A stretch of DNA of 64,000 nucleotides from contig CAWDHT010000010.1 of the NCBI GenBank assembly GCA_963802165.1, forward strand, positions 1,888-65,887, read 5' to 3'. Positions 11,817-61,667 of this stretch are shown in pieces. This DNA is from an uncultured Chloroflexia bacterium. GTDB lineage: Bacteria > Chloroflexota > Limnocylindria > Limnocylindrales > CSP1-4. The position numbers and the translations under genes were made by a program. Under the pieces are notes generated by a model. It saw only the letters and a list, made by a program, of their open reading frames with translations. It did not search any database and was not told the origin of the DNA. How positions within the stretch are numbered: the first letter of the stretch is position 1; each line of letters starts with the position of its first letter.

Positions 11817-11831
11817 CGGCCCGTCCGGAGC

Positions 11832-13214: not shown

Positions 13215-13276
13215 TGTCCCACGGGTCGCGGGGGCAGGGTTCGGGCGCCGGGAAGACGCCCCATGCGAACGCGGCC

Positions 13277-13936
13277 CTAGGGCTCGATGGCGTGGAGCAG
13301 CCCCGCACGCTCGAGCGTCTCCACGATCAACTCCGCGGGGATCGCCCCCTCGCGCCTGATCACCGGCAGGTCCCACGTGCAGTCCACGACCGTGGAGGCC
13401 TGGCCGCCGTGGATCGGACCGCCGTCGATGACCAGGGCAAGGGCGTCGCCGAGGCGCGCAGCGATCTCCTGCGCGTCGCGTGCGTCCGGCTCGCCTGACA
13501 CGTTCGCCGACGTCGTGGGCAGTGGGCCGAGCGCGCGGGCGATCGCCCGGGGAGCGTCGTGGTCCGGCACACGCACGCCGATGGTCGGCGATCCGGCGGC
13601 GAGCACCCGTGGCAGGACCGCGCCGGGACGGACCGGCAGGACCAGCGTGAGGCCGCCCGGCCAGAACCGCTCCGCCAGCACTCTGGCGTGCGGCGTGAGC
13701 TCGCCCAGCGTCGCCGCCTGCTCCATGTCGGCAAGGAGGACCGCGACGGCCTTCTCGGGCGGGCGGCGCTTCGCGGCGAAGAGCCGCTCGATGGCATCGG
13801 GGAGCGCGAGGTCTGCCGCGATCCCGTAGACCGTATCGGTGGGCACCGCGACGATCAGCCCGGCCCGCAGGAGGTCCACGGCCTCGCCGCGGGCGACGTC
13901 ACCGTCCGGGAGGATCCGGGGGAGGGCGGGCGTCAC
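13277..13936 (-). CDS. tsaC: L-threonylcarbamoyladenylate synthase (YrdC/Sua5 family)
   Basis: 219 aa with YrdC-domain motifs (…[12 protein letters not shown]…, …[11 protein letters not shown]…). It sits in the conserved prfA-prmC-sua5 position. Confidence 0.85.
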
Positions 13937-15830: not shown

Positions 15831-15856
15831 GCCGCTACGGCCTGGCTTGCGTCTGC

Positions 15857-16984: not shown

Positions 16985-17001
16985 GGTGGTCCGGGCCGCC
17001 G

Positions 17002-21571: not shown

Positions 21572-21643
21572 CGTTCCCCTCCCGTGCACTCACCGGCGGT
21601 CGCCTTCCCCGGGCGGCCGCCGGTGAACCCGTGCCCTGCAGGG

Positions 21644-22084
21644 TCAGCGCCGGAGCGGGTCCGGGATGTCGACCTCCTCGCCGCGCCACATCGAGACCTC
21701 CTCCGTGGACAGGCGGCCGAAGTAGTTGAGGAAGTGGGCGCCGTGCCGCTCCAGGACCGCGGCGGCCTCGAGCATCCGGTCGCGGTCCGCGACGTGGACG
21801 GCAATCACCGCGCGCCCGTCCAGGAGCGCGTGCTCGTACACGAGGAAGTCCGGCGTCTGGTCCATCAGCGTGAACTGGAGCGCTCGGACGAGGCGCGAGA
21901 AGGCGTTCGGATGCTGCCCGAGACGGCCGAGTCGGTCGCGTCCCTCGTCCCCCACCAGCATGACCACCTCGGACGGTTCGAACGCCGCCCCCGTCAGGGC
22001 ATCGACGGCCCCGGCGGCATCCGTCGGGACGTCGATGACGCCGAGGAGACGGTTCGTGGGGTAGGTGATCATGCGACGGGTCAC
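21644..22084 (-). CDS. Hypothetical protein (146 aa)
   Basis: ORF convergent with nirK. No recognisable motif. Confidence 0.45.
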   Translation of the reverse strand: MTRRMITYPTNRLLGVIDVPTDAAGAVDALTGAAFEPSEVVMLVGDEGRDRLGRLGQHPNAFSRLVRALQFTLMDQTPDFLVYEHALLDGRAVIAVHVADRDRMLEAAAVLERHGAHFLNYFGRLSTEEVSMWRGEEVDIPDPLRR

Positions 22085-43986: not shown

Positions 43987-44062
43987 GCGCCTGTAGCTCA
44001 GTGGATAGAGCGTCGGCCTCCGGAGCCGAAGGTCGCAGGTTCGAATCCTGTCGGGCGCGCCA
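43987..44062 (+). tRNA. tRNA-Arg (anticodon CCG)
   Basis: Manual fold: acceptor GCGCCTG/CGGGCGC (one G·U), anticodon arm TCGGC-CTCCGGA-GCCGA and T-arm GCAGG-TTCGAAT-CCTGT, with an encoded CCA. Very similar to E. coli tRNA-Arg(CCG). Confidence 0.88.
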
Positions 44063-45524
44063 TTGCAACCTTTTCGGGCAGCGCCAGCGCCAAACCGTGC
44101 GCGTAGGCCGCCGAGGTGAGGCGAACCCCGACGATCTCGGGTCCCGCGATCACGATCCGCTCGTAGATGGCGTGCATCAGGTCTGCCCTCTCCTTCGGTA
44201 CGTCTGCCTGCTGGACTGACTCGGCGATGGCCTGCAGCCATTCGATCGCGCGCTGTGCCGGGACTCCGACCCCCGACCCCTCGACGAGCACGTCCCGTGC
44301 CTCCCGGAGCGCCTTCAGCCGGGCAAGGTAGGCGTCGTCCGCGAGGTCGCCAGCCGCGTGCTCCAGGGCGAGCTCGCGGATCCGCCGGTCGATCCGGGCC
44401 CGGTCCATCTCGACCGGCCGCCTCGTCGAGCCGAGGACCGCCACCACCGACGCGATCGTGTCGTCGTCGACGGTGATGCCCGCGACCTGCGCCAGCATCG
44501 GTCCCTCCCAGATCGCGTCGGCCAGACGGGCCTTGCGGCCCCAGGCTTCGCACGGGTTGACGTGGAGCTTGCGGTGGCGACCGTCGCCGAACGTCCCGTC
44601 GTTGCGGATGCGGAGGCCGCACACGCACTCGAGGAGGCCGCCCAGGAGGTCGACGCGGTCGTGGCGCTTCGCTCCCCCGCCCCGGGTCTTGCCTCGCCGG
44701 ACGTCTTCGACCCGCGCCCAGAGCTCGTCCGACACGGGCGGGTGCGTGCGCCACGGTGCCGGCTTTCGCGACTCTCGGTCGCTCCGCCGGTGGCGGACGG
44801 ATCCAGCCGTTGTAGAGCGGGTTCATGAGGATCATCCGGATCCGGCTCGCCGCGAGCCCCGTCTCGGCCTCGAGCTGGGTCGGCACTCACGTTGCCCAGC
44901 GCATAGCGCTCGAACAGGCCGACCGCGACCCCGATCGGTCTCCGGGTCGACCTCGAGTGTGTGCGGCGGCTCGGGCAGGCGGCGGAAGCCGAGGCCGGCG
45001 TGCCCGCCCGGGTCGTCGCGGTGGTCGAACTTGGCGGCGTAGCCGTCCGTGATCCGCTCCGACAGACGACGGCTGTACTTCTCCGCGCCGGCGGCCTCGC
45101 TGATCAGCTCGTCCCAGTCGTGCGGGTCGGACGACAGGATCCGACGGTCGCACATGACGAGGGCCACGCCGGCCGGGTGGAGGCCGTCCTCCAGCAGCTC
45201 GAGCGTCCGGCGGAGGTTGCGCTGCCAGCGGTCGGAGTAGCCGGCGAGGAGGAGGTCGAACGCACCCGCCTGCGCCTCGACGAGCATCTCGGTCATCGTC
45301 GCCGAGCGCCAGACCGTGGTGCCGCTGTGGGCGACCTGGAACACCAGCCCCGTGTCGACGAGGCCGTGGCGCTCGATGAACCGGTCCTGCTGCTCGCGCT
45401 GGCTGGCCGGTCCGAAGCGGTCGTACTGGCCGGCGGTCGACTCGCGGATCCAGCGGGCGACCCGCAGGCCACGCACGTCGTCGAGCGAGCGGGGCAGGCG
45501 ACGGAGCGTGCGCGGTTCCCTCAT
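43998..45524 (-). CDS. Large serine recombinase (integrase), broken by at least one frameshift
   Basis: Resolvase catalytic domain in 44832..45524 (…RVARWIRESTAGQYDR…). The recombinase zinc-ribbon and coiled-coil domains are in 43998..44735 (…CVCGLRIRNDGTFGDGRHRKLHVNPC…). The 3' end reads through the antisense of tRNA-Arg (…RPTGFEPATFGSGG…). Confidence 0.75.
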
Positions 45525-45708
45525 GCGGCCCCGGCCTCGCGCGTCGTGTCCATGACGACCACATTCGCTCTGTTTCGCGCAGCAGCCAAGCGTTCCCGGC
45601 GCATCTGGTCGGGACCGTCCGGATACCGGCCGTGGAGGGCTTCGACGTACCGAGCCAAGGCGGCGACGAGCGGATCACGCTCCACCGGCCGCCGCACCTG
45701 CTCAGCCA
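45521..45708 (-). CDS. Small protein (62 aa) translationally coupled to the integrase (ATGA overlap); possible recombination directionality factor
   Basis: MAEQVRRPVERDPLVAALARYVEALHGRYPDGPDQMRRERLAAARN… Its stop overlaps the integrase ATG. Confidence 0.4.
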
Positions 45709-45819: not shown

Positions 45820-47949
45820 CTAGACCCCCTTCGCCTGCGCGGGCGCCAGCGCGGTTGTCGTGGTTGTTGTGGTTGTTCGGGTCAGCCGGAGCACCGTGGC
45901 CGGCCGCTTCGCCCCGGCGAGCCGAGTCTTGGCCCGCTCGGCGATGCCAAGCGACTCGAGGAGCACGACGGCGGCCTCGAGCTCGGCCGCGCTCCGGACG
46001 CCGAGCGCCCGCTTCGCGTCCTCCCACTTGAGCGGCCCGTCGGCGAGCTGCGCCCGCAGCGCATCGGCGTGGCGGTCCCCGGTCGAGCTGCCGAAGACGT
46101 AGGCGACGGATCGGACTGCGTACTCCCACAGGGCGCGGGCGGCCCGGAGGTGCGGGACGTCGATGACGGACGAGCGGTCGAGTAGCGCGTACACGAGCGC
46201 CAGGCGCACGATCTGCGCCTCGGTCCGCGCGGTCATGGCGGCCAGCAGGCCCCAAGGTCGGTACAGCGTCAGCTCGAGATACAGCTCCTCCCAGGCGTCG
46301 CGCGCCTCAGTCGACCAGGGCACCTCGCCCGGTGTCTGGCCCTCGGTGATAGCAGCGCCGACCGCGGCGAACAGGGCGGGGTCGACGTGCTCGACGGGCG
46401 AGGTTGGGAAGGGCACGAGGCGCGTGCGCCGGACCGCCAGCCAGATGAAGCGGTTGCCGAAGCCGTTGGCGGCGTCGGTGCCGCTGAGCCTCGCTCGGAG
46501 TTCGACTGGCGTGACGTGGGCCACGATGCCGACGTGGTGGCTGTGGACGATCGACTGCTCGCGCGCGAGGATCCGGCCCATCGGGACGCCGTCCCAGGCG
46601 TCGCGGACCATCGGGGAGAGGGTCGAGCCCTCGCGGGCCATGACTGTCAGCAGCCGGCCGAACTCGCTCTCCATGACGAGGGCCCGGGGTTCGCCCTGCT
46701 TCTCGTTTGCCTTGAGGTAGCCGACGAGCCCCTCGCCTGAGCCCAGGCCCGCGACGATCAGCTGACTCCACTCGGGGTACGCCCGGTTCATCACCTCGCG
46801 CGCGATCGAGCCCGCGGTGCCCTTGCGGCCGGTGCTGCTGTCGCCGACGAGGACGACGAACAGGTTCGGCGCCTGGGCGCTCCCCTGGTAGATGAAGCGC
46901 AGATTGCGCATGGCGGCGCCCACCGACGCGAGGAGCGTTCCGAGGATGCCGACCGGGTCGGCCTCGGTGTGCGGGGCGACGGCGCGCACGATCTCGCCGA
47001 GCGGGCCGTGGTAGACCGCGGCGTCGGGCGGCGCGGGCCAGCCGGTGGCCGCGGGCTCGGCTGGCGCCACGGCGGCCGCGGCCATAATCGCGGCCTCGGC
47101 CGCCGGGTCGGGAAGCGGCGCACCGAGGCGCGCAGGCGTGTCGTCCCAGGCCCGCTCGAAGCGCTCCCGGAGCTCGGGCTCCGACAGTGGCACCAAGAAC
47201 CGGGGTGCCAGGACGGCGAGGACCCCCGCCCATATCTCGTCGGTTGAGATGCCGCGCCGGTAGCGGCTCGCGATGTAGTCCCGGATCGCCTCGTAGCGGG
47301 CGCCCGCGTAGCCCGGCGCGGGCAGGTCGTACCCGCCCCGCCCGACCTCGAGCGCGTCGTCGTCCGCCGCCGCGGGCGCGACGACCGCCTGCGCCCAAGC
47401 GTCGGGCAGCGTGGCGATCTCGAGGCACGAGCTCGCGGGCTCGTACACGGCGCCCGAGGCGTGGACGCTGCGGGGTCCGATCACGTAGCCGGCACCCGCA
47501 CCCGAGCCCCAGCGTGTGACGTAGCCGAATAGCTGGCCGACGGGTCTCGGCAGCTCCGTCGGCCAGCGCAGGAACACGTGCTGGCCGTGGGCGGTGTTCG
47601 TCCGCAGCGTCGGCGGCAACGCCCCGAGTCGGCCCTCGAGCTCGGCGAGCCGCGCCACCCCGTCGCCGTCGACGTCGAGCACGAACACGCCGTCGGGGCA
47701 CACCAGCCCGTAGTTGGGCTCCGACCCGGCCGTGAGCAGCCTCCGGATGCGGTCACGGTCCCGTGTGTACTCGAGGAACCCCTGCCGCCCGATCGGGTGC
47801 TTGCCGGGGCTCCCGCACGCCGCCCGCTTCGGGCACCGGCAGGTGCCGTCGGAGTCTGCGCTCCACACGCTGAAGACCCCGAAGCCGCGGTCGGCGAACC
47901 AGGTCGCGGCGCGAATGCGGTCCTCGGCGGTCGGGCGCGAGCCTGTCAC
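45820..47949 (-). CDS. Bifunctional primase-polymerase (Prim-Pol) with a C-terminal DUF3987-like NTPase region; plasmid/AICE RepSA-type replication protein
   Basis: Prim-Pol N-domain (…AATWFADRGFGVFSVW…GKHPIGRQGF…YGLVCPDGVFVLDVDGDG…NTAHGQHVFLRWP…) and a C-terminal P-loop-like VLVGDSSTGRKGTAGS. It ends in a poly-Thr tail. The GTG start at 47949 overlaps the RHH gene stop (GTGA). Confidence 0.8.
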   Translation of the reverse strand: MTGSRPTAEDRIRAATWFADRGFGVFSVWSADSDGTCRCPKRAACGSPGKHPIGRQGFLEYTRDRDRIRRLLTAGSEPNYGLVCPDGVFVLDVDGDGVARLAELEGRLGALPPTLRTNTAHGQHVFLRWPTELPRPVGQLFGYVTRWGSGAGAGYVIGPRSVHASGAVYEPASSCLEIATLPDAWAQAVVAPAAADDDALEVGRGGYDLPAPGYAGARYEAIRDYIASRYRRGISTDEIWAGVLAVLAPRFLVPLSEPELRERFERAWDDTPARLGAPLPDPAAEAAIMAAAAVAPAEPAATGWPAPPDAAVYHGPLGEIVRAVAPHTEADPVGILGTLLASVGAAMRNLRFIYQGSAQAPNLFVVLVGDSSTGRKGTAGSIAREVMNRAYPEWSQLIVAGLGSGEGLVGYLKANEKQGEPRALVMESEFGRLLTVMAREGSTLSPMVRDAWDGVPMGRILAREQSIVHSHHVGIVAHVTPVELRARLSGTDAANGFGNRFIWLAVRRTRLVPFPTSPVEHVDPALFAAVGAAITEGQTPGEVPWSTEARDAWEELYLELTLYRPWGLLAAMTARTEAQIVRLALVYALLDRSSVIDVPHLRAARALWEYAVRSVAYVFGSSTGDRHADALRAQLADGPLKWEDAKRALGVRSAAELEAAVVLLESLGIAERAKTRLAGAKRPATVLRLTRTTTTTTTTALAPAQAKGV

Positions 47950-48170
47950 GGCACGGGATCCGCGGGAGCGCCCGGCCGCGACGTGGACGCGCTGCCGCGG
48001 CGCCCAGCAGCCGCGCGGACGCGGGCGCGGAGGCCCTGGACGACCAGGAACGAGGCCTGGTCGCGCGGCGTGCGGCACTCGGCACGGGCGAGGTCGCGCA
48101 AGGCCGCCTCTGCGTCCTCGGGGATGCGGATGGTGATCGTGGGCATGCCCCGATTGAACGTCCGCTCCAC
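47946..48170 (-). CDS. Ribbon-helix-helix (CopG/Arc-like) DNA-binding protein
   Basis: MPTITIRIPEDAEAALRDLARAECRTPRDQASFLVVQGL. It is coupled to the primase gene. Confidence 0.7.
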   Translation of the reverse strand: MERTFNRGMPTITIRIPEDAEAALRDLARAECRTPRDQASFLVVQGLRARVRAAAGRRGSASTSRPGAPADPVP

Positions 48171-48251
48171 ACGCCAGGTAAACGAGGCGAACGCGACAAC
48201 AACACGCCATCAATGCGCCAGGAATGCGCCATCCGCTCCGCGGCGAGGCGG

Positions 48252-48860: not shown

Positions 48861-49706
48861 TCAGTCTAGGCCGCCGCCGCTAGTGTGAACAGGTGTTCTA
48901 TCCACGAGATTCGGCCGGATGGTGGGGCGTTGTCCACATGTTGGGCGGCCATGGGGGATGGGCGGTGGATGCTGCGGGGGCGACTCTGCGCGTAGCGGAG
49001 CCTCCAGCACATCGAGGTACTCGTCGGCGATCTCGAACTGGATCGTCACCACCGTGAGGGATGGCGTGACGTTCTCGAGCCAACCCCTCGCCCGCTTGAT
49101 GCACGCTGGCAGCTCGACGTCGGCCGCATCGGGCCCGCCGCCCTGGCCCCTCCGTACGAAGCCTCCAAGGTTGAGGCTCGCTCCACCGGCCGGGCTGCTC
49201 CGGTAGCGTCGCACGTGATCGGCGGCTCGCCTGCGACCCGATCCCTGCCCCACGCCCAGCGCCTCGAGACCCGTGACCAAATCCGTTAACTTGGACGGCG
49301 GATACGCCTCGCTGACCCAGATGGCGCGCAGGCGAATTGACTCGTCGTCAGGCATCCGCCCAGCTTGGTTCCGCTCAGGATCGAGGCTTCGCCAGCCCAC
49401 CAGCCCGGCTCGCCCCATGGCCGCCTTGCGGACGGGCTCGGGCACAAGCCGCTTGCCCCACCGCGACCATGCGAACCGGTCAAGGGGGATCCATACAAGC
49501 CGTTCGATCCTGGTCGCTTGGACCTCTTCCTTGCCTGGTTCGACCGTCACCGCGCTGCCTCGATCGAGTGGGCCCGCCTCCCCGACGACGCAATGACGGC
49601 TTGGCGACACAGAGGTGTTGGGGCCAGCTGCAGTTGCGCCCAGGGCGACGCAACGATGGCTCCGCGGCCAGTCTAGTGCGACGCGGTCAGCGTCGATCGG
49701 CCTCAC
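48861..49706 (-). CDS. Hypothetical protein (uncertain; may be frameshifted)
   Basis: Long ORF in a lower-GC stretch. Parts look protein-like (…DESIRLRAIWVSEAYPPSKLTDLVTGLEALG…, …TPSLTVVTIQFEIADEYLDVLEAP…). The C-terminus is low complexity. Confidence 0.3.
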   Translation of the reverse strand: MRPIDADRVALDWPRSHRCVALGATAAGPNTSVSPSRHCVVGEAGPLDRGSAVTVEPGKEEVQATRIERLVWIPLDRFAWSRWGKRLVPEPVRKAAMGRAGLVGWRSLDPERNQAGRMPDDESIRLRAIWVSEAYPPSKLTDLVTGLEALGVGQGSGRRRAADHVRRYRSSPAGGASLNLGGFVRRGQGGGPDAADVELPACIKRARGWLENVTPSLTVVTIQFEIADEYLDVLEAPLRAESPPQHPPPIPHGRPTCGQRPTIRPNLVDRTPVHTSGGGLD

Positions 49707-49817
49707 GATGGAGGTGTGCGAGGCGCACGGGATCGCTGTCCCTACGGCATGCTTCGAATGGAGCGCCGCGTGACGGGGAAGGTGGTCGCAGCGGCGCGCG
49801 TTTGAACGGAGGGGACG

Positions 49818-50039
49818 ATGGGTATTCCCAGTGATCTAGTGAGGACGTTGCGCGATGCGTATCAGCAAGCGCCCCATGGTGACGTCGCGGTCCGGATCCA
49901 CCTCTTCGGAATCGCGCACGCGGAACGCCTCGCCGGCGTGAACCGAAAGGAGCTATGCGCCGCGGCGGGGATCTCCGAGAACTGGGCCACGGAGATCCAC
50001 AAGGGCATGCGGTTGTCGGAGTACGTGACGCTCCGTTGA
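49818..50039 (+). CDS. Small HTH-like protein (73 aa) immediately upstream of the giant GHKL-DUF3883 gene
   Basis: …GVNRKELCAAAGISENWATEIHKGMRL… resembles a helix-turn-helix. There is a 7-nt gap to the next ORF. Confidence 0.45.
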   Translation: MGIPSDLVRTLRDAYQQAPHGDVAVRIHLFGIAHAERLAGVNRKELCAAAGISENWATEIHKGMRLSEYVTLR

Positions 50040-50046
50040 TCTGGGG

Positions 50047-53000
50047 GTGCCGACGGTTGGCTGGCCGATATCGGGTTCCGCGGTCGTCGTCTTGGCAGGT
50101 TGCCGCGTTTTCCTTCCATCGTGCCCAGACTGCGGCCAACGGTCTGGACCTAGCGAGGACGGCGAGCACGGCGAAGTCCTCGCGCGCCGGCGAGGGCAAG
50201 CGTTGACTGACCTGCTTGAGAGCATCCGCCGTCAGAATCTGGGGGCATACGAGTCGATGCCGTCACGCGTCGACGAGGACGCGAACCAGGAATCACAGAT
50301 CTCCCAGGACTACCGTGGCCGCCTGACCTTCGAACTTCTGCAGAACGCGGACGACGCGATGGCTGGAGGCGGCTTCACGGAGCGAATTGTCTTCCGGCTC
50401 ACAGACGACGCTCTCGAGGTCGGCAACACCGGTCGTCCGCTCTCGGACGACGACGTCCGTGGGCTCTGCGGGACGGGAGCGAGCAGCAAGACGGCGATCG
50501 CGGGCCGCCGCAGGGCATCAATCGGCCACAAGGGCATGGGCTTCAAGTCCGTCCTGGAAATCACCGACGAGCCGGAAGTCATCTCCACCACGATCGGCCT
50601 CAAGCTGGATGCGGCCGAGAGCCTCCCTGAGATCAACGCGGCGCTCGGTCGCCATGGGATGCCGCCAAGGAGACGGGTGCCGACCATGCGCCTGCCATGG
50701 CCTCTGGATCGCGAGCCCGCCAGTTGGGCCGCGGCGCAGAGGGACGGCCTGCAGGTGTTGTTCCGGTTCCCTCTTCGGCCGAGCCTGTCCAAGAGCCAGC
50801 GAACCCTCCTCGCCCGGCGGATCCTTGACCTGCCGGTCACGGCCGCGTTGTTCCTGAAGCACCTCGACGACGTCGAGGTGGATGTCAGTACGAGCGACGT
50901 AAGGGGTCGCTTCCGGTGGCGTCTCAAGCGAGAACGCTTGGCGCACGGACAGTGGATCCATACGCCCGGCTTCGGCGACTCCGGCGTCTACCGCATTCGT
51001 GTGTCCGGTGCAGATGGCGTCGATCTGGCATTCCTGGTCGCACACGACGCCGACGTGGAAATCGGCTCGAACCGCAACGGGCTGGATGTCGCGTCATGGG
51101 ACGATGTCGATCTGACCGAGGTCTCGATCGCAGTGCCATGGTCACTGGCTGAGAAACGTCCATCCAGCGCGGGCCTCCCGGCGAACTGGGCGAAGTTCCA
51201 CGTGTTCCTGCCGACGGCCGAGGCGGCGCCCTACCCGCTCCTCATCAATGGCGCATTCAGGACGGACCTCTCTCGCCAGGAGGTGCGCGTTGGCGAGGAT
51301 GACCTCGACTACAACCGGCACCTGCTCCGGGCGACGGCCCGCGCCTTCGCTCAACGGCTGATCCCGGCGCTCACGGACGAGGGTGTGGCGGTCCCTGACG
51401 TCCTCGCTCTCGTCGACCGGTCGGCCGCGGCCGGCTCACGCTCCACGGGGAGTGCCGCCGCGGTGCTGCACGAAGCGATGCGCCGGGAGCTTCGGGACGT
51501 TGAGTTCATCCCGGGCGAGGACGGGCTCAGGCTCCGCATCTCGGAACTCGTGGTCCCGCCGCCCACATCGTCCGCGGGGCTCGGGGCCGCGTTCCGAGCC
51601 ACCCTGCCTTCGGATGCGACGTTCGGCGACCAATGGTTCCCGACCGGCGACATGTGCGACGCACGGATGGCGTCGATCCTTGTCGACTTTGGTGCGCGGC
51701 CACTCAGCATCCGCGAGACGGCCTCGGTCCTGGCCGGAGCTGACCCGATCCGCTCGAGGCTCCAGGCTCATCCGACACTCGGTGAGCGCCTGCAGGTGGA
51801 TCCGGTGCTGGATGTCCTCGGGCGCCTCTGGGCGGAGCTGCGTGGCCGCGAACGCACGGAGTTGGAGCAAGCGGCCCGTGAGTCGCCGCTGTTTCCGGTC
51901 GGGCTTGAGGCCGGCGTCACGCGTCGCGCTCGGTCCGACTCGATCCAATGCTTCTACCCGCCGCGGACGCTGGTCGGAGAGATCCCCCTCACCGGACTGC
52001 AGTTCATGCTCCAGCAGGTGTGCTGGGGCGACCTGACAGCCCGCGAGCGCACCGAGCGCCTCCATGACGAAATGGCCGCCTGGCAGGCGCTGTTTGGGAT
52101 CCGTGAGTTCAAGTTCCCGGACGTGATGCGGGCCAGCGTCTTCCCGGCCCTGGAACTCGAGCCGGGCGACGAAGGCAAGGCGCTCCGCGTCCGGTTGCAG
52201 GATGCGAATGTCATCGCCGCGATCTGTCGGCTCGCTGGCCGGACGGCCAACGCCAGTAGCCCGCTGCCATACGAGCGCCTCGGCACGAACCGAGCCCTGT
52301 TCAATCTCTCGCGGCTGCGCGTTCAGTGCCGCAACCGTGCCAACGACATCGAGCGGTGGGAGCCGGCGTACCGCGTCTACTTTGGCTCGGACTGGGTGGG
52401 GGAGGATTCTGTCGAGCACGTCCTCGACGCGATGCGTGAGCGCGGTCTCCCGACCCCCGACATTGCATTCCTCGCGCCACCCAATGAGTTCGTTCAACGG
52501 CTGGCCGAGGCGCGCCACATCCGGCCGGTTGCGGCTGATGACCAGATTGCTGACAACATTGAAGTAGGTGAGCAGGAGGACGAGGACGCCGCCCTAGAGT
52601 CGAACGACCGAGAGCGAGCGCTGAACTTCTTCACCTGGCTGGGCGTGAACCGTGTAATGCGGCCGGTCTCATTCCACGACGTGATGGACGCGGGCTCGGG
52701 ATGGCTCAGCACGGCTGGCCTCTCGAGACCCAAGGGCTGGGCATTCGCCGACCTCGGTGGTATCTGGGACGAATACGCCCGCTATGTCGCGGATGCCCCT
52801 GACGACGACGGCGCGGCCGCCACACGCTACTACTACGGACTCCACGACCTCGAGCACGTGTCCCCTCTGCTGTCGGCGGCGAGCCGCGACGAGACGGGGG
52901 TTATCGCCAGGGCCCTGTACGCCCACCTTGCGCGGGGATGGCCGCAGCTGAGTGCCTTCGCAAAGCTCGTGGTCGCCGTCAGCAGTGACAAGGGCATCAG

Positions 53001-55056
53001 CAAGCGCACGCCGCCCAAGCCGAACGACGAGGAGCTGCGGCTCAGGACAGACAACTTCTGGCTCTACCGGTTGCGGAGTGCACCCTGGGTCCCCTCGACC
53101 CAGGGCCCGCGCGCTCCGGGTCGGGTGTGGATGCCTTCGGCCGAGATCGATCGCCGGTTCGGTCGTCGTGGAGCCATCGCGGGCGAGCTCATCCCGCTCC
53201 TGGAGGTGGACCACGGCGTGCCCTCGGGCCGCGTGGAGACCCTCTCGCAACGGCTGGGCATTCGAGGTGACCTCAGCCCAGCGACATTCCTCGAAGCCGA
53301 TGCCCGAGACCTACTTCGACGGCTCAAGTTCCGATTCGAGGGACCCGCTGCGGACGGCAGCCTTGATGAACGACAGCTCCGTGAGGTCGTGCGGCCTGCC
53401 TATCGAAACCTGCTCGAGTTGCTGGCCGGTCCGTCGGGCGACGACGAAGACATGGATGCCAGTGGGCAGGACGCATCGCTGGGGGATGAGCCTGTCCTCG
53501 TCCGCGACGGCCGCGACGGTCTCCGGTTCGTGTCCGGGCACGCGAGCTACTACGTGGCTCGGAGCGGCACCCTGATCCGGATCGGCCAGCCGCCGATCAA
53601 CACCTTCATCCTTGAAACGTCAGTGACGGCTCGACGTGCGTTGCGGCAGTTGGGGATCCGGACGCTCGAGGACGTCCTCACGTGGTCGCCGGAGCCCGGC
53701 GCGATCGCGCTCGACGAAGCTGAGCTCAACGCGTTCCACACCGGCCTGGCCGAGCTCGCGCCGTACATCCTTGCGCGTCTCCGGGTCGACCGAAGTGACG
53801 ATCGGACCGCGTCGCGCGACGCCACGCGGCTGCGGGAGCTCCTAGGGGCGATTACGCCGGTCGAGTCGCTTGCACTACGGTGCGACCTGGATGGTCAGAC
53901 ACTGGTCGACAGCGGGAGTCGGGACTCCCATGTCGCTGAGCGCGAAGACGGTTCTCTGGAAGCGTACGTTCGGTGGGGCTTGTCCGGCTGGCCGCCGTCC
54001 CGCGCTGACGCGAACGCCCTGGCAAGCGTCTTCGTGGATGCGATGGGTGCCGGTGCGTTCGAGGCTTATCTGGCGCTGATCACGGCCGATGACCCGGGCG
54101 CCCGCCAGCGCCTGTTGACATATGCCGGCGCGACGACGAATCTCCGCGAGTTCCGGGACCTGCTGTACGGCCCGATGCCAGTCGAGACTCCGACGTCCAC
54201 CGTGGCCGCCTGGGACGGCGGACGCACCATCGTCATTGACGATGTCGAGTGGCTCGGCGGGCCGACAGCACCCCCGGACGACGGCGGCGGTTCCAGGACG
54301 GGAAAGATCCCCCTGTACCGCCCTGAGCAGCTGCAGTTCGCCGGAGGGCCGACGATCGTAGCCGGGATCACCCCCGTCGACGCGAGCGCCGCCAAGGACA
54401 AGGGTGACGGGACAGCCAGTGGTCGGGGCGCATCCTGGAGTCGAACCGGCACCGACCTGGATGAGCTCAATGCCGTGGGGATGTCCGTGGCCCTCACCTT
54501 CGAGCGCCATCGCCTCCAGCTCGCGGGTACGGCGGATGCGGCGATCTTCGTGTCGGGAGCGCCAGTCGACGATGCGTTCGTGTTCGACGTGTCGACGCCC
54601 ACGGCCATCAAGGCGGCGCTTCGCGAGTCAGGGCGCTTCCGACAGGCGCATGCACAGCTCGTCTCGCTCGGGCTATCTGCTGACTACCCGGGCTTCGACA
54701 TCCTCACCCTTGATCCGGTTGATGCGAGCAACGATCGGTTCATCGAGCTGAAGTCCTCTGGTGTCGACGCGCAGGTGCAGGCGATGACCTGGAACGAGTG
54801 GAAGACGTCACGCGACAGCACCCTGCGAGAGCACTTCTATCTCTATCTGGTGTCGAACCTGCGCTCGGACCTTGGTAATCGCTCGCCGTACCTCCGGGCG
54901 GTCCGGGATCCGTTCGGGTCACTGCTCAGCCGAGAGCTGGTGGAGGACGACCCGCGACGCGTGATCCAACTCCGGGTCCAGGAGTTCGAACGGGCAGAGC
55001 ATCAGGCCATCAACGTGTTGCCCGTGGGATCCACGGGACTCGGGGCAGGGTCGTGA
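50047..55056 (+). CDS. Giant (1669 aa) sacsin/NOV-type protein: N-terminal GHKL (HATPase_c_3-like) ATPase motif plus C-terminal DUF3883 (restriction-endonuclease-like PD-(D/E)xK) domain
   Basis: Bergerat-fold signature GRLTFELLQNADDA near the N-terminus. The C-terminus (GFDILTLDPVDASNDRFIELKSSGVDAQVQAMTWNEWKTSRDSTLREHFYLYLV) matches the DUF3883 pattern (D…fIEvK…ltwNE…Y.LYvV). The true start may be the TTG at 50203, which has a GAGGG 6 nt upstream. The ORF is intact over 5 kb. Confidence 0.85.
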   Translation: MPTVGWPISGSAVVVLAGCRVFLPSCPDCGQRSGPSEDGEHGEVLARRRGQALTDLLESIRRQNLGAYESMPSRVDEDANQESQISQDYRGRLTFELLQNADDAMAGGGFTERIVFRLTDDALEVGNTGRPLSDDDVRGLCGTGASSKTAIAGRRRASIGHKGMGFKSVLEITDEPEVISTTIGLKLDAAESLPEINAALGRHGMPPRRRVPTMRLPWPLDREPASWAAAQRDGLQVLFRFPLRPSLSKSQRTLLARRILDLPVTAALFLKHLDDVEVDVSTSDVRGRFRWRLKRERLAHGQWIHTPGFGDSGVYRIRVSGADGVDLAFLVAHDADVEIGSNRNGLDVASWDDVDLTEVSIAVPWSLAEKRPSSAGLPANWAKFHVFLPTAEAAPYPLLINGAFRTDLSRQEVRVGEDDLDYNRHLLRATARAFAQRLIPALTDEGVAVPDVLALVDRSAAAGSRSTGSAAAVLHEAMRRELRDVEFIPGEDGLRLRISELVVPPPTSSAGLGAAFRATLPSDATFGDQWFPTGDMCDARMASILVDFGARPLSIRETASVLAGADPIRSRLQAHPTLGERLQVDPVLDVLGRLWAELRGRERTELEQAARESPLFPVGLEAGVTRRARSDSIQCFYPPRTLVGEIPLTGLQFMLQQVCWGDLTARERTERLHDEMAAWQALFGIREFKFPDVMRASVFPALELEPGDEGKALRVRLQDANVIAAICRLAGRTANASSPLPYERLGTNRALFNLSRLRVQCRNRANDIERWEPAYRVYFGSDWVGEDSVEHVLDAMRERGLPTPDIAFLAPPNEFVQRLAEARHIRPVAADDQIADNIEVGEQEDEDAALESNDRERALNFFTWLGVNRVMRPVSFHDVMDAGSGWLSTAGLSRPKGWAFADLGGIWDEYARYVADAPDDDGAAATRYYYGLHDLEHVSPLLSAASRDETGVIARALYAHLARGWPQLSAFAKLVVAVSSDKGISKRTPPKPNDEELRLRTDNFWLYRLRSAPWVPSTQGPRAPGRVWMPSAEIDRRFGRRGAIAGELIPLLEVDHGVPSGRVETLSQRLGIRGDLSPATFLEADARDLLRRLKFRFEGPAADGSLDERQLREVVRPAYRNLLELLAGPSGDDEDMDASGQDASLGDEPVLVRDGRDGLRFVSGHASYYVARSGTLIRIGQPPINTFILETSVTARRALRQLGIRTLEDVLTWSPEPGAIALDEAELNAFHTGLAELAPYILARLRVDRSDDRTASRDATRLRELLGAITPVESLALRCDLDGQTLVDSGSRDSHVAEREDGSLEAYVRWGLSGWPPSRADANALASVFVDAMGAGAFEAYLALITADDPGARQRLLTYAGATTNLREFRDLLYGPMPVETPTSTVAAWDGGRTIVIDDVEWLGGPTAPPDDGGGSRTGKIPLYRPEQLQFAGGPTIVAGITPVDASAAKDKGDGTASGRGASWSRTGTDLDELNAVGMSVALTFERHRLQLAGTADAAIFVSGAPVDDAFVFDVSTPTAIKAALRESGRFRQAHAQLVSLGLSADYPGFDILTLDPVDASNDRFIELKSSGVDAQVQAMTWNEWKTSRDSTLREHFYLYLVSNLRSDLGNRSPYLRAVRDPFGSLLSRELVEDDPRRVIQLRVQEFERAEHQAINVLPVGSTGLGAGS

Positions 55057-55117
55057 TCGACGGTTCGGGCGTGCTCGACCGCAAGCTTCTCCGGTTCGAT
55101 GTCAGCGAGGGGCGCGC

Positions 55118-56323
55118 GTGCGACCGGCCGCCCGCCGCGCGGCCCGGTGGCTCGTCATGACCGCCGGCTCCGAGAGCGCGCCCGCCTGCACGGTCTGCAC
55201 GCGCCTGCCGATGGAGGAGCCCGTCGCGATCCGCTGGCCTGCCCCGGTGGAGGCCGACGAGTGGGCGCATGACGACCGCATCCGAGGCGCACTCCTCGGA
55301 CTCGCCCTCGGCGACGCACTCGGTTCGCTGGCCCACGCCGGCAAGGCTGAGGCGGTCGACCCGACCCCGGGCTCCCTCCGCACGGGCGGCGCCACGCAGC
55401 TGGCGCTCTTCACGGCCGAGGGCGTGCTGCGGATGCAAGTCCGCTTTGCCGCCAAAGGGATCGGCCCGGCCTGGGGCGTCATCCGCCACGCGCTCGACCG
55501 CTGGATGGTGACCCAGGGCCGGGAGCCGAACACCACGTTCGCGTGGCAGCCCGAGGCCTGGCCGGACGGATGGCTTGTCCGGCAGCACCGCCTGCACCGC
55601 CGCGTGGATGGCTTCGGGGCGACGGTCGAGGCGCTGGGCGTCCAGGCCGACACGTGGGAGGGCATGCCCGAGCGCCACGTGGCGACCTCGCTCCCGAACA
55701 CCAGCAGCGGAGCAGGGGCGCTGGTGCGCGTGCTCGGCGCCGGGCTGGCCGTACTGCCGAAGGACGCCACGCTTGTCGGCTCGATCGCCGCTGCCATCAC
55801 GCACGGTGGCGCCGACGGGTATCTCTCGGGCGGGGCCCTCGCTCGGCTGGTGGCCGGTCTCGTGGCCGGCGAGCAGATGGACGACGCCATTGCGGCGACT
55901 TCCGCAGACCTGGCGGGCTGGGCTGGCAGCGGGCCCGTGCGCACCGCGCTCTCGGGCGGCGCCACGACCGGCCCATCGAGCGCCACCCGGGCCCTCGCCG
56001 CCGCCATGAGCTACGCGACCTTCGGGGTTCCCGATGACCCGGTCGTGATCATCGGGCGGGCGATCGCCGCCGGGGGGACGGCGGCTGGGGTGGTCGCCGG
56101 CGCCGTGGCGGGCGCGCGACTCGGCGCCTCCGCGTTCCCGGCTGGCTGGCTCATGGCCCCGGACGTCGCCGACTTGCTCGAGGAGATGACCCGCGCCTGC
56201 TCGGCCGCCCACCGCACGTGGGTCATGGGGCGCGACCTGCCGGGCTACGACCAGCCGCCCGATATGCCGTTCGACGACGATCCGGCGGTCGCGCTGCTCT
56301 GGCCGCGCTTCCCGGGCTGGTAG
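55118..56323 (+). CDS. ADP-ribosylglycohydrolase (ARH/DraG family)
   Basis: DDRIRGALLGLALGDALGS N-terminal motif and a later …ITHGGADGYLSGGALA… block typical of ARH enzymes. Co-oriented 60 nt downstream of the giant gene. Confidence 0.85.
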   Translation: MRPAARRAARWLVMTAGSESAPACTVCTRLPMEEPVAIRWPAPVEADEWAHDDRIRGALLGLALGDALGSLAHAGKAEAVDPTPGSLRTGGATQLALFTAEGVLRMQVRFAAKGIGPAWGVIRHALDRWMVTQGREPNTTFAWQPEAWPDGWLVRQHRLHRRVDGFGATVEALGVQADTWEGMPERHVATSLPNTSSGAGALVRVLGAGLAVLPKDATLVGSIAAAITHGGADGYLSGGALARLVAGLVAGEQMDDAIAATSADLAGWAGSGPVRTALSGGATTGPSSATRALAAAMSYATFGVPDDPVVIIGRAIAAGGTAAGVVAGAVAGARLGASAFPAGWLMAPDVADLLEEMTRACSAAHRTWVMGRDLPGYDQPPDMPFDDDPAVALLWPRFPGW

Positions 56324-56654
56324 AGGGGGTTGGGGCTAGACGACCGGACCCGCGCAGCTGGCAATGCCGATGCAGACCGCGCTACGCGTGCCAACGTGGG
56401 CGCCCACCGGCCGTCCCGGGCGGGGTCGTGGGCGGGCCCTCAAGGCACGCCACCTGGTACTCAGGCGCCATGTGGCACCCGCGGACGAAGACGTACGGGA
56501 CGCGGGTGGTGGGCGTCGCACCACCGGCGCGGCCTGCCCCGCCCGCCGAGGTACGGGAGCTCGACGCCGCAGGCCGCACAGTGGCGCGGCGGCGCGAGGC
56601 TCGCACGGAGGGCCATCGTCGCGGACGCGGCCATCTCCTCGAGCGCGTCAGCGC

Positions 56655-57128
56655 TCACGGATCGGCCACTGGCGAAAATGCGCCAAGAATCCGCGAAACC
56701 CGGCCGAGGAAACACAGTCGCGCGGCGCAGTCAGCACGGACGTGCGTCTCCACATGGGCTACCCCACCCCGGTCGGTCGACGCACCCTTCGTCGAGTTGC
56801 ACGATCGACAGAGCACCGCGGTGTTGCCGATGTCGAACGGCGCACCGCCAGCGGCGAGCGGGACGACGTGGTCGACGGTCAGGTCGGCGGCAGGGTGAGC
56901 GGGGCGCTGGTAGCCAGGGCACCAGTTGCCGTGCTCGCCACGCCAGGCACGCAGCACGCGGGCGCTGAGCCGTTGCCAGGCCCGCGTGCTGTAGAGGGCG
57001 TTGTGCCGGCTGCGGTTGGACTGGCGGGCGTGCTCGGTGCAGCGACTACCAGCGCGGCTGGTAACGACACCGCAGACCGTGCACAGCTTCACCCGCGAAT
57101 CGTCGGCGGGCTGGCTGGCGCGGTCCAT
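56655..57128 (-). CDS. HNH endonuclease
   Basis: CTVCG…C…H…, LTVDHVVPLAAGG, NTAVLCRSCNSTK: a classic ββα-Me HNH motif set. Confidence 0.85.
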   Translation of the reverse strand: MDRASQPADDSRVKLCTVCGVVTSRAGSRCTEHARQSNRSRHNALYSTRAWQRLSARVLRAWRGEHGNWCPGYQRPAHPAADLTVDHVVPLAAGGAPFDIGNTAVLCRSCNSTKGASTDRGGVAHVETHVRADCAARLCFLGRVSRILGAFSPVADP

Positions 57129-57276
57129 ACGCTCGCAGTGCTAGGCCTGCCGGGCCGCCCTTGGGAGGCCAGCAGGTGCGTCGCCGCTCGAAGGCGATCG
57201 TCACCTACTCTCGTCGCAGCACGTCTCGTACGCCGGCGGGAGCTTTCCGCAGACGACACCAGCGCGGAGGAAGGCG

Positions 57277-59681: not shown

Positions 59682-59930
59682 TCAGCCGGGCTCGAGGGTC
59701 GGCACGACGAGCCACCCCTCCGCCCGCCCCCGGTAGATCAGCTGCTCGGTCGTGAGGCCCGACCGCGCCCGCAGGTCGGCCAGGTGCCGCTTCGCGGTGC
59801 TCGGCCGGACGCCGACGCGCGCCGCCGCGTCCGCCACGGATCCTCCGGCAGCGACGAACGCGGCGAGGACGTCGACCTGGCGGGCGGTCGGCGTCCGCGG
59901 GAGCGAGCCGCGCAGGTACCCGTCTCTCAC
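59682..59930 (-). CDS. Small LuxR/GerE-type HTH-only regulator (~82 aa)
   Basis: …TARQVDVLAAFVAAGGSVADAAARVGVRPSTAKRHLADLRARSGLTTEQLIY… The GTG start at 59930 overlaps the stop of a 47-aa TM ORF (GTGA). Confidence 0.6.
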   Translation of the reverse strand: MRDGYLRGSLPRTPTARQVDVLAAFVAAGGSVADAAARVGVRPSTAKRHLADLRARSGLTTEQLIYRGRAEGWLVVPTLEPG

Positions 59931-60073
59931 GACGCCGGGCTCACCCGGCTCCGGGTGATGAGCCCCAGGACCACCGCCGTGACCGCGAGGATCGCGCCGA
60001 TCTGGTCGGGCGCGAGGTTGAGGCCGAACGCCACGACCAGGGCGATGACCGCCTGGACGAGGGCGAGCACCAT
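59929..60073 (-). CDS. Micro membrane ORF (47 aa)
   Basis: MVLALVQAVIALVVAFGLNLAPDQIGAILAVTAVVLGLITRSRVSPAS. Coupled to the LuxR-HTH gene. Confidence 0.3.
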
Positions 60074-60122
60074 CGCCGGCTCGCGGCCGCACAGAGGTGC
60101 CGGGCTGGCTATCCATCACGTG

Positions 60123-61130
60123 TCACGCTCCGTACGCGGCGGCCGCGCGGTCGGCGGCCGCCTTGACCGCCGCGGCCGCGGTCTTCTCGGCAGCGTCGAG
60201 CTGCGCCTGGCTGAACGGCGTGGGGTCGGGCGCCGGGCGGATGGTGGTGACCTCGGACGCCTTCGCGAACATCGAGCGACCCTGATGGACGCCCTTCGCA
60301 TCGACGTACTCGACGATGCGAACCGTGCTCGCCGGCTGGCCGAGGTAGGGCATGTCGCGCCCCGGGTCGACCGGATGTTGTCGGGCGAGGGTTCGAGCGC
60401 GGAGGTCGCGTACAGCCAGGTGCCCGCGGGCACGGTGGCGATGCTCGGGACCTTGGGCACGGGGTAGCTGTTCACGGTCTCCTCGGTAGCGGGCGGCGCT
60501 GGCGCGAGGGCGGCGAGGTAGCGGGCCTGCGGGAAGCCCACGGGGTCGTCCGCCCAGGGCCGCCAGCAGGAGGGCTTGAGGCGCCCGGCGATGTAGTGGT
60601 GGTCGATGAGGTGGTGGCGGTCGATCGGGATCGCCCGGAGCTCGCGGGTGATCGCGGCTTCGGTGCCGGCGCGGAACCGGATCCCGGCGGCCTTGAGCTC
60701 GGCGAGGTCGCCGCGCAGCAGCAGGGCATCGAGCGCGATCGAGGCCGCGATGACGGCCTCGGGCACGACGCCCTTGCCGGAGCCTGCCGTGCGGCCGCCG
60801 TTGTCGTGGTGCTCGATGCTGACCGTGCGGCTGTTGACGAGGCGTCGTCGGGTAGCGGTCGTCCCAGGCGCCCGAGGGGTCCCAGTTGCCGTTGCCCCAG
60901 GCCTGGTCGCCGAGCCGCACGTACTGGTGGACGTGGGCCGACGTCGGGTGGCCGGCGCGGCCGCAGCCGTAGCCGACGCCGAAGTGGGTCGAGGCCTCGC
61001 GTCCGTCGGTCGAGGTGAACGCGGCGTCGGTCGAGCGGAGCGTGCCGACCATGCGGTGATGGACGAGCGCGATGAGCGGTGCCGGGTGGCCGGCCGTGAA
61101 CTTGGGTGAGCCGACCCAGTAGATCGTCAC
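60123..61130 (-). CDS. N-acetylmuramoyl-L-alanine amidase (amidase_2/PGRP-type endolysin) with two apparent frameshifts
   Basis: The N-terminal catalytic domain (MTIYWVGSPKFTAGHPAPLIALVHHRMVGT…THFGVGYGCG…) is in the 60123..61130 frame. The middle part is in the 60116..60766 frame. The C-terminus (…VRIVEYVDAKGVHQGRSMF…AQLDAAEKTAAAAVKAAAD…) returns to the first frame. Confidence 0.72.
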   Translation of the reverse strand: MTIYWVGSPKFTAGHPAPLIALVHHRMVGTLRSTDAAFTSTDGREASTHFGVGYGCGRAGHPTSAHVHQYVRLGDQAWGNGNWDPSGAWDDRYPTTPRQQPHGQHRAPRQRRPHGRLRQGRRARGRHRGLDRARCPAAARRPRRAQGRRDPVPRRHRSRDHPRAPGDPDRPPPPHRPPLHRRAPQALLLAALGGRPRGLPAGPLPRRPRASAARYRGDREQLPRAQGPEHRHRARGHLAVRDLRARTLARQHPVDPGRDMPYLGQPASTVRIVEYVDAKGVHQGRSMFAKASEVTTIRPAPDPTPFSQAQLDAAEKTAAAAVKAAADRAAAAYGA

Positions 61131-61357
61131 CTCACGCCCCGCCAGACCGCGGAGGCCTCGAGCCCCAGGAGCGCGAGGATCGCGCCGAGGAGCGGCAGGA
61201 GGATGCCGGGGCTGATGTCGTAGTCGGGGACGGCGACGTCGAGGACGAGGAGGACGACGAGGACGAGCGTGAGCGCGGCAGCCGCGCCGATCCGGGCCGA
61301 GCTGTAGACGTCGGCCCGGCGCTGGTCTGCCGCATCGTCACTGCGCTCATCGCCCAT
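61127..61357 (-). CDS. Holin-like 2-TM protein immediately upstream of the amidase (overlapping start/stop)
   Basis: …IGAAAALTLVLVVLLVLDVAVPDYDISPGILLPLLGAILALLGLEA… Its stop overlaps the amidase start. Confidence 0.45.
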   Translation of the reverse strand: MGDERSDDAADQRRADVYSSARIGAAAALTLVLVVLLVLDVAVPDYDISPGILLPLLGAILALLGLEASAVWRGVR

Positions 61358-61472
61358 GCCGGCGCAGTCGGTCGATCCACGCATCGACGAGGAGCGGGAG
61401 CACGAAGCGGTCGAGGGCGCCGCCCATGACCACGCCGGCGAGGAACGCCAGGACGAGCTCGAGCCCGCTCAT
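61347..61472 (-). CDS. Small 1-TM protein (41 aa), possible holin/antiholin partner
   Basis: MSGLELVLAFLAGVVMGGALDRFVLPLLVDAWIDRLRRHGR. Its stop overlaps the next ATG (ATGGGCGATGA). Confidence 0.3.
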   Translation of the reverse strand: MSGLELVLAFLAGVVMGGALDRFVLPLLVDAWIDRLRRHGR

Positions 61473-61667
61473 CGGGCCGCCGCGGGGTTGACGGCGCGGA
61501 CGTACCCGGTGGGGGGAACCGGGAGTCGGTGTGGATCGGACCAGCGCGCCGTCATGCCCTCAAGGGTGGCGGCGGCGGGCCGCGGTTTCTAGTTGGCCGA
61601 TTGGGCCATGCCGGCCATCAGAGTGCCACCTCGCAGGGCGCGCGGCTGCGTCTCGCGCGAGACGGCG

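Follow-up and report, generated by a model that had tools for sequence, protein, structure and literature searches.

A giant ATPase-nuclease, most likely of the single-gene Tiamat (TmtA) family, beside exchangeable gene cassettes in an uncultured Chloroflexota bacterium

Results

Layout of the giant gene and its neighbours

The window analysed here, 64,000 nucleotides (nt) of DNA from an uncultured Chloroflexia bacterium (contig CAWDHT010000010.1, positions 1,888 to 65,887 of the forward strand), holds a gene for a giant protein with a sacsin-type GHKL ATPase region at one end and a DUF3883 nuclease domain at the other. The gene for this TmtA-like (Tiamat-family) giant of 1617 amino acids (aa) occupies 50203..55056 on the + strand and is recognised by PADLOC TmtA models and by Pfam SACS and NOV_C. 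Upstream lies a gene for a small 73-aa protein (49818..50039, +; Pfam HTH_73 PF24718, E 1.4e-24), and downstream a gene for a 388-aa protein with the fold of the ADP-ribosylglycohydrolases (ARH; 55157..56323, +; Pfam ADP_ribosyl_GH PF03747, E 6e-16). An earlier note, made from the letters of this DNA, had read the three genes as a candidate defence module. All open reading frames (ORFs) that it named are present, and every one of its domain guesses (helix-turn-helix (HTH), sacsin GHKL, DUF3883, ADP-ribosylglycohydrolase and HNH) was supported by hidden Markov model searches. Its defence interpretation was right in kind, in that the family of the giant lives in defence islands and TmtA models match. 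As to the identity of the system, the giant most likely belongs to the already described single-gene Tiamat (TmtA) anti-phage family, which would make it no new system.

The mechanically called ORF of the giant begins with a GTG and spans 50047-55056, corresponding to the 1669 aa given in the earlier note. Homologues all begin M[TNS][DE]LLESIR, and the DNA homology between the window and one of its closest relatives, locus L002, begins exactly at the homologue-type N-terminus of the giant (TTG 50203). Since the homologue N-termini and the L002 homology breakpoint coincide there, the true start is almost certainly TTG 50203 and not GTG 50047. The ORF is thus present and intact, with a probable true length of 1617 aa, and the distance to the HTH_73 gene, previously put at 7 nt, becomes 163 nt (50040..50202, +), comparable to the 159-nt spacer between the same two genes in another close relative, L001. 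A promoter and terminator scan of 48.8-57.4 kb gave nothing exceeding shuffled expectation, including the weak hairpin and T-run at 50093-50115 within this spacer. For the ARH gene the mechanical ORF spans 55118-56323, and the start is most likely ATG 55157, giving 388 aa as in the homologues.

Domains, conservation and family of the giant protein

The N-terminal part of the giant (residues ~1-570; 50203..51912, +) comprises Hsp90/sacsin-like GHKL ATPase and middle (transducer-like) domains, with the N-box ELLQNADDA at 50332-50358 (+). It is followed by a middle region of ~850 residues (51913..54450, +) that belongs to no recognisable family and is conserved among homologues, and by a C-terminal NOV_C/DUF3883 PD-(D/E)xK nuclease domain (54451..55002, +), in which the catalytic candidates, all on the + strand, are E1434 (54502-54504), D1499 (54697-54699), E1515 (54745-54747) and K1517 (54751-54753). 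Pfam identified SACS (PF25794, E 4e-9) and NOV_C/DUF3883 (PF13020, E 2e-6), and the NCBIfam model P_loop_sacsin, which describes the sacsin N-terminal ATP-binding domain, matched with E 6.5e-21.

In an alignment of 34 homologues spanning 41-94% identity, the GHKL residues E44, N48, D50, D51 and G77, the residues G108, K110, G111 and G113 of the stretch G108-H-K-G-M-G113, and the complete PD-(D/E)xK set E1434, D1499, E1515 and K1517 are invariant (34/34 in each case). The ratio of nonsynonymous to synonymous substitution rates (dN/dS) of the giant gene is 0.12-0.15 versus L001 and L002, and the giant is under purifying selection. At the level of sequence, the giant is established as a fusion of a sacsin-type GHKL ATPase with a PD-(D/E)xK nuclease of the DUF3883 kind, both predicted catalytic sets being intact.

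AlphaFold (AF2) models were made for the two halves of the giant from input alignments of 18 and 14 rows. Each half reached a mean predicted local distance difference test (pLDDT) score of ~72, and residues 1-570 were mostly confident, with short low-confidence dips near 93-112. When submitted to Foldseek, the N-half matched the N+M domains of HtpG, Hsc82 and TRAP1 over ~555-600 columns (E 4e-6 to 1e-4) and the sacsin SR1 structure 5v44 (E 4.5e-6, 21% identity), as well as SMCHD1 and GyrB, and the C-terminal model resembles restriction endonucleases and Hjc. Structure prediction, a check proposed in the earlier note, thus returned an Hsp90/sacsin-like N-half and a nuclease-like C-terminus; the ~850-residue middle region, although kept across homologues, matches nothing recognisable. 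A sequence search of the giant against the PDB gave no match, and an hhalign comparison of the N-half with the C-half found no second sacsin repeat in the middle of the giant, the deliberate overlap between the halves alone being matched.

Nine PADLOC TmtA models match the giant, namely PDLC03971 (E 7e-59), PDLC03964 (E 1e-55; ORF residues 53-1282 on model positions 9-1046 of 1538, plus a second stretch) and seven additional ones. With these matches the view of the earlier note that the system was undescribed has to be given up.

Homologues and their neighbourhoods

A search of 5.8 billion proteins returned 395 word-filtered homologues of the giant, the best 120 of which are ~1600 aa long and 41-94% identical, and the sources among the matches listed include Chloroflexota, Deltaproteobacteria, Planctomycetes, Myxococcales, Armatimonadota and a Chitinilyticum isolate. 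For the C-terminal half of the giant, a set of 1.84 billion representatives contained 254 clusters at 50% identity, a small family. Full-length relatives with 25-28% identity, annotated merely as DUF3883, are also encoded on haloarchaeal megaplasmids (H1-H8, e.g. NC_018225.1, 18532-23382), and the architecture of the giant therefore spans Bacteria and Archaea.

In total 88 loci were compared, including 78 additionally fetched metagenomic loci. One homologue adjoins BrxL, PglZ and methylase genes of a BREX system (Pfam-annotated contig), another is found in an operon with AddAB-like UvrD-PDDEXK proteins near WYL and SLFN-type helicases, and a further one lies beside GmrSD_N and a ParE/Phd module. 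The nearest long ORFs were scanned against Pfam without bias, upstream at 48 loci and downstream at 49. No recurrent family was found downstream of the giant in the 49 loci, and among the upstream genes of the 48 loci UvrD/PDDEXK and RNase_H_2-SF1 helicase proteins recurred in a minority. Given the heterogeneous neighbours and no recurrent downstream family, the giant is an autonomous gene, as expected for Tiamat, and its family resides in defence islands as a stand-alone gene.

Two kinds of neighbour were observed repeatedly. A ~1110-aa protein with RNase_H_2 and SF1-helicase domains (AAA_11/AAA_12/AAA_30) is encoded near the giant in seven loci (L007 at 2532-5864, L021, L036, L041, L042, L063 and L076), with variable orientation and on either side, and could be either a partner or a defence gene that co-localises with the giant. 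AddAB-like UvrD-helicase/PDDEXK_1 genes lie directly upstream and co-directional in L008 (1-6011), L015, L022 and L030, with coding regions that in L008 overlap the start of the giant, an arrangement that suggests an operon variant of the giant family.

The ARH-like gene and its cassette

The ARH protein matched PF03747 with 59.3 bits versus a gathering cutoff of 26.2, over model positions 1-286 of 287. A jackhmmer search with this protein across the 88 loci detected ARH solely in L002, a relative with an 85%-identical giant. The closest ARH homologues (83% aa identity) were found in L093, L094 and L095, directly behind the gene of another giant, 1873 aa long, and in L093 the stop codon of this giant and the start codon of ARH overlap (ATGA). 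The 1873-aa giant of L093 matches PADLOC TmtA PDLC03971 end to end (E 1e-73), and its ~30% identity to the window giant is confined to the ATPase and DUF3883 ends; we refer to it as a type-B TmtA and to the giants of the window and of L002 as type A.

The DNA of the ARH cassette (55066-56333, +) is mobile, being shared at 84% nt identity with L093/L095 and with L002. The DNA that the window has in common with the L093 cassette starts 91 nt ahead of the ARH start codon, and the translation of window 55059-55160 aligns with the C-terminal tail of the L093 TmtA, ending in ..LVRLDVRDWDARYRPPAARPAGS before the stop. The aligned stretch (55059..55160, +) corresponds to the last ~33 codons of a type-B TmtA gene, and it ends in a TGA that overlaps the ATG of ARH, so that the ATGA junction of L093 is retained. 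This relic appears to record an earlier replacement of the giant gene upstream of an ARH cassette that stayed in place, and ARH may be the translationally coupled ancestral partner of type-B TmtA that survived the swap. In a second possible reading, ARH would be a gene at the edge of a hotspot. L093 and L002 share an upstream PDDEXK_1 gene (84% aa identity), and between PDDEXK_1 and ARH there is a 137-aa gene plus the type-B TmtA in L093, and a 397-aa gene plus the type-A TmtA in L002. With both flanks in common, the intervening segment has been exchanged, and ARH could therefore be a mere border gene. On the other hand, a lineage-restricted functional link between ARH and TmtA stays conceivable, because the same cassette follows a second, divergent TmtA subfamily.

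More distant homologues were found in other contexts. Those at 50-60% identity have PIN toxins, GmrSD_N or unrelated genes as neighbours and no recognisable giant, and the context of one of the ARH genes, P0134, likewise contained no recognisable giant. A more distant relative on a Streptomyces plasmid has a metabolic context. Within this ARH census, a single-protein scan of genome contigs returned no more than 4 loci.

ARH enzymes such as ARH3 and DraG bind a di-metal centre with two Asp pairs, located in the motifs (S/T)DDT and GGDxDT. All 40 ARH homologues aligned with the window protein have GGATQ in place of TDDT, the N-terminal motif being assigned by position only, and all 40 have GGTAAx in place of GGDxDT; in a profile search against the PDB (HMMER) the GGDADT of 2cwc and DraG was aligned to the GGTAAA of the ARH-like family. 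The clade of the window protein thus lacks at least the C-terminal one of the two canonical Asp pairs of ARH enzymes. It has a set of residues of its own, with C11 nearly invariant and C14, H111, H144, H147, H216, WPDGW and a C-terminal PR[FY]PGW invariant, and the Cys/His residues could form an alternative metal or active site. The ARH-like gene has a dN/dS of 0.17-0.22. Its own invariant residues together with purifying selection argue for a functional protein, perhaps a binding module, and the protein is probably not an ADP-ribosylhydrolase.

We also considered ARH as an active NAD/ADP-ribose enzyme, and rejected this because the C-terminal of the two metal-binding Asp pairs, if not both, is absent. 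The argument of the earlier note from a NAD/ADP-ribose-metabolising partner is weakened accordingly, since the deficiency extends to the whole clade.

HTH_73 and mosaicism among close relatives

Iterative jackhmmer searches of the 88 loci with the window HTH protein found HTH_73 just in L001 and L003, which represent one contig, and in L039. HTH_73 accompanies a giant in two independent lineages of the 88 loci, upstream of it in L001 and downstream in L089/L039, and in L089/L090 the distance from a giant with 45% identity to the HTH_73 gene downstream of it is 165 nt. L091 and L092 have HTH_73 but no giant at all. The dN/dS of the HTH_73 gene is 0.12-0.17, and judging from these contexts it is a small selected island gene with no fixed giant partner. 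As a candidate dedicated regulator of TmtA, HTH_73 was rejected on the grounds that it is found without a giant.

The proposed three-gene HTH-giant-ARH module, for which the earlier note had named a lack of co-conservation of the partners as one refuting outcome, did not survive the comparison. The partners are not co-conserved, with ARH in 1 of the 88 and HTH_73 in 2 of the 88 independent loci, and the closest relatives L001 and L002 have other genes in the flanking slots. L001, from a Chloroflexota metagenome-assembled genome (MAG) with a 94%-identical giant, matches window 48985-55070 at 92%; the match takes in part of the upstream gene, HTH_73 and the giant, and stops 14 nt past the stop codon. 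In the ARH slot L001 has a gene (14918-15832) for a 304-aa OGG-like putative 8-oxoguanine DNA glycosylase (PF21790, E 9e-47), and homology resumes at window 56464 with a small ORF and HNH. L002 matches window 50209-56360 at 84%, covering giant and ARH, and here HTH_73 is replaced by a 397-aa protein (8811-10004) whose gene overlaps the giant start by 4 nt. This protein matches the PADLOC candidate PDC-S11 (E 1e-9); it could be one more accessory or a defence gene in its own right. The 3.1-Mb genome L092 has at 8001-8620 a shortened HTH_73 immediately next to the HNH gene, the latter with 90% identity to window 56689-57149, and this arrangement resembles an unoccupied or deleted form of the slot that in the window takes giant and ARH. 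The cassette breakpoints in the window are thus at 50209, 55066-55070 and 56333-56464, and the HTH_73 and ARH-like genes appear as swappable cassettes in a recombination hotspot.

As a side observation, the ARH-slot occupants of the window and of L001 both have a glycohydrolase-type fold.

The surrounding mobile element

The left end of the mobile genetic element (MGE)-like stretch is a tRNA-Arg(CCG) gene (43987..44062, +; ARAGORN, Rfam), one of two tRNAs that were the sole hits of an Rfam scan of the whole window. Next to it is a disrupted gene for a large serine recombinase (43998..45674, ORF 44832-45674, - strand; Pfam Resolvase E 9e-10), which across 45500-44529 shares 38% identity with the 493-aa L091 recombinase, itself intact, and the reading frame of which runs antisense into the tRNA-Arg gene. 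Near 44823-44834 the recombinase gene is broken by an out-of-frame segment that contains two stop codons, and this reflects either a pseudogene or an assembly error. The earlier note had described many neighbours as frameshifted; the recombinase could be verified as such, and just that one neighbour. A gene for a 797-aa Prim-Pol/D5-like primase-helicase follows (45820..48213, -; Pfam Prim-Pol E 1.5e-25; PHROG DNA primase families) and appears intact and phage-like. The G+C content of the window is ~72%, and goes down to 0.67 over 49-55 kb versus 0.72-0.75 in the flanks.

The tRNA, the recombinase, Prim-Pol and the G+C dip all speak for the tRNA-integrated element of the earlier note. A search of 43.9-64 kb for an att repeat of the tRNA-Arg 3' end, or for long direct repeats, gave chance-level matches alone, so that the island borders are not defined. 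Serine recombinases need very short cores only, and the missing repeat is weak evidence. With a recombinase beside the tRNA and replication genes present, and with att repeat, intact recombinase and far border missing, an integrated element next to the tRNA is plausible and half demonstrated, and the element is probably immobilised. The observations support that the giant sits on a horizontally acquired, MGE-like stretch.

A relative of this element was found in L091, a Limnocylindrales MAG, where 1387-13416 has a recombinase and Prim-Pol backbone like that of the window together with HTH_73 and no giant. The cargo in L091 consists of DUF4062, an N6/N4 methyltransferase and AAA_5 plus McrBC. 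Since the cargo differs on the same backbone, the element family carries exchangeable defence cargo.

Discussion

Proposed function and rival explanations

We consider it probable that the giant is a Tiamat (TmtA) single-gene anti-phage/anti-MGE protein whose gene is cargo of an integrative element in decay, within a Chloroflexota-like host genome of high GC, and that the protein works alone as an ATP-gated nuclease. By analogy with Hsp90, MutL, GyrB and MORC, ATP binding would drive dimerisation of the N-terminal part and a clamp-like cycle, which through the large middle region would sense an invader-specific nucleic-acid or protein cue, and recognition of the cue would license the C-terminal nuclease for DNA cutting. 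No partner would be needed by the giant, as HTH_73 and the ARH-like gene are exchangeable and neither is an obligate subunit. The ARH-like gene would originally have been coupled downstream of the other TmtA subfamily and left behind at the giant swap; its protein may modulate TmtA, and the family does not need ARH.

Several points weigh against this explanation. The TmtA assignment consists of profile E-values and is not a PADLOC/DefenseFinder system call with official coverage thresholds, membership was judged from TmtA profiles and not from an alignment to the validated Bacillus cereus TmtA, and beyond the N-terminal ~450 residues just one of the nine PADLOC TmtA models (PDLC03964) aligns. 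No paper describing the mechanism or a domain map of TmtA was found in the literature searched, where the mechanism is listed as unknown, and the ATP-gated nuclease model for this reason rests on analogy. Furthermore, the ARH cassette follows TmtA-type giants of two subfamilies, which is more than a random neighbour would predict.

This last point leads to a rival explanation, in which TmtA and the ARH-like protein, with or without HTH_73, form a true multi-gene subtype and an ARH-fold protein that has lost its hydrolase chemistry would gate the giant as a sensor of ligands or modifications, an inhibitor or an antidote. In its two-gene form, a rewired, Asp-less ARH-fold protein with its own Cys/His set would be translationally coupled to TmtA and serve as sensor or brake; it might bind ADP-ribose-type ligands or targets modified by phage ADP-ribosyltransferases, or hold the nuclease inactive. 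The cassette (84% nt identity) stands directly downstream of two TmtA subfamilies that are ~30% identical in their terminal domains, the ATGA stop/start overlap of L093 is kept as a relic junction in the window, and the purifying selection on the ARH gene (dN/dS 0.17-0.22) and the invariant Cys/His set of its clade are also in favour of such a subtype. Were it true, the pairing kept by the window after the TmtA swap would mean that one ARH module can function together with TmtA proteins from divergent subfamilies. We nevertheless regard both forms as unlikely, for ARH is present in just 1 of 49 other loci with downstream sequence, an OGG-like gene fills the slot in a 94%-identical relative, homologues at 50-60% identity lie by PIN toxins or unrelated genes with no recognisable giant, a distant relative has a metabolic context, and the PDDEXK_1 and ARH flanks common to L093 and L002 mean that ARH could be a border gene.

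Could the giant instead serve the mobile element, as a nuclease for addiction or exclusion that keeps the island stable or shuts out competing elements, with HTH_73 as its repressor? The gene lies within an element with a recombinase/Prim-Pol backbone, HTH_73 is found again on the same family of elements next to other cargo (L091), and G+C dips over the cargo. However, most homologues reside in chromosomal defence islands without such a backbone, and in L091 HTH_73 is found beside DUF4062, methyltransferase and McrBC genes and no giant, hence it is no dedicated TmtA repressor. An intact giant under purifying selection contrasts with the disrupted recombinase of the element, and in any case defence and element-level exclusion can coexist. 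A role confined to the element is in our judgement improbable. Even less credible, to the point of being nearly dismissible, is a housekeeping sacsin/Hsp90-like chaperone or DNA-repair factor without a conflict role, for which it can be said that the N-half folds like Hsp90 N+M and sacsin SR1, which are chaperone modules. Such a role is at odds with the patchy distribution across phyla (for the C-half, 254 clusters at 50% identity out of 1.84 billion representatives), with the variable and defence-rich neighbours, with the restriction-type nuclease fused to the giant and with the TmtA model matches. A stand-alone TmtA protein thus remains the explanation that we prefer.

Comparison with known systems

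Tiamat (TmtA) is reportedly to be credited to Millman et al. 2022. The text of the Millman preprint does not mention Tiamat by name. Tiamat has the standing of a validated single-gene defence system with a PD-(D/E)xK domain (10.1101/2024.10.26.620412; PMC12926258). Like Tiamat (PADLOC PDLC03964-03972), the window giant is a giant single protein that matches TmtA models, has a PD-(D/E)xK domain, is encoded by one gene and belongs to a family of defence islands and hotspots. It differs in that it comes from an uncultured Chloroflexota-like lineage and has a lineage-specific ARH-like cassette, and in that its middle is aligned by PDLC03964 alone, whereas the L093 subfamily matches PDLC03971 end to end.

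With the SRR/SR1 unit of sacsin and the N+M domains of Hsp90, the N-terminal ~570 residues of the giant share the fold and an ELLQNADDA-type Bergerat motif. Unlike sacsin, the giant has one SRR-like unit and no UBL, DnaJ or HEPN domain, and a restriction-fold nuclease is fused instead. The pair of end domains, a GHKL-type ATPase region and NOV_C/DUF3883, is also found in plant NO VEIN (NOV) (PMC11232893). This likeness is one of domains; NOV acts in development as a eukaryotic nuclear factor, in a context unrelated to that of the giant.

Among bacterial defence proteins, VcSduA, which combines GHKL with a DUF4263 nuclease, loses defence if either activity is mutated (PMC12137116). VcSduA and paraMORC3-type Shedu resemble the giant in that a GHKL ATPase controls a C-terminal PD-(D/E)xK nuclease within one protein. 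VcSduA, in contrast to the giant, has DUF4263 and not NOV_C, a MORC/MutL-like and not a sacsin/Hsp90-like ATPase, and about one-third of the size. HmaA of the Hma system needs its NOV_C nuclease (PMC11232893), and thus has, like the giant, a NOV_C nuclease domain as defence effector; unlike the giant, it has a Snf2 helicase motor and is annotated alongside HmaB and HmaC (PMC11232893).

The downstream gene has the ARH fold, by Pfam as well as by profile comparison with the PDB, in common with DraG, ARH1/3, Tri1 and T. thermophilus 2cwc. Its clade departs from this family by having no Asp pair of the GGDxDT type, with TDDT seemingly replaced too according to motif position, and by its additional invariant Cys/His residues and PR[FY]PGW C-terminus.

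The locus displays strict conservation of the GHKL and PD-(D/E)xK residues of the TmtA family, and it maps the TmtA layout as an Hsp90/sacsin N+M module, an unclassified region of ~850 residues and a restriction-fold nuclease, providing precise targets for mutation. The breakpoints at gene boundaries and the TmtA-tail relic illustrate cassette-wise exchange of defence genes within a hotspot. The novelty that is left is of modest interest and lies in an Asp-less ARH-fold protein whose coupling to two subfamilies of TmtA is lineage-restricted. If this link is functional it would give a first handle on the regulation of Tiamat, and otherwise the giant is an ordinary defence gene.

Other features of the locus

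Convergent with the ARH gene is a gene for a phage-type HNH endonuclease (56655..57140, -; PF01844/PF14279, HNH/HNH_5; phrog_144 E 6e-18). A small ORF of ~82-89 aa (56461..56730, -) is common to the window and L001, and has no Pfam or PHROG match; within it, 56479-56658 exhibits 80% identity to an 82-aa protein of L001 (tblastn).

Pfam annotation of the right flank (57-64 kb) was mostly uninformative. Short blocks at window 59682-60127 and 61124-61612 are common to L001 and L002. In L002 their counterparts (16918-17409 and 20526-21923) flank small ORFs and an Amidase_2/LysM endolysin-like gene, with Terminase_4 nearby, which hints that the right-hand part of the island is of prophage or satellite ancestry.

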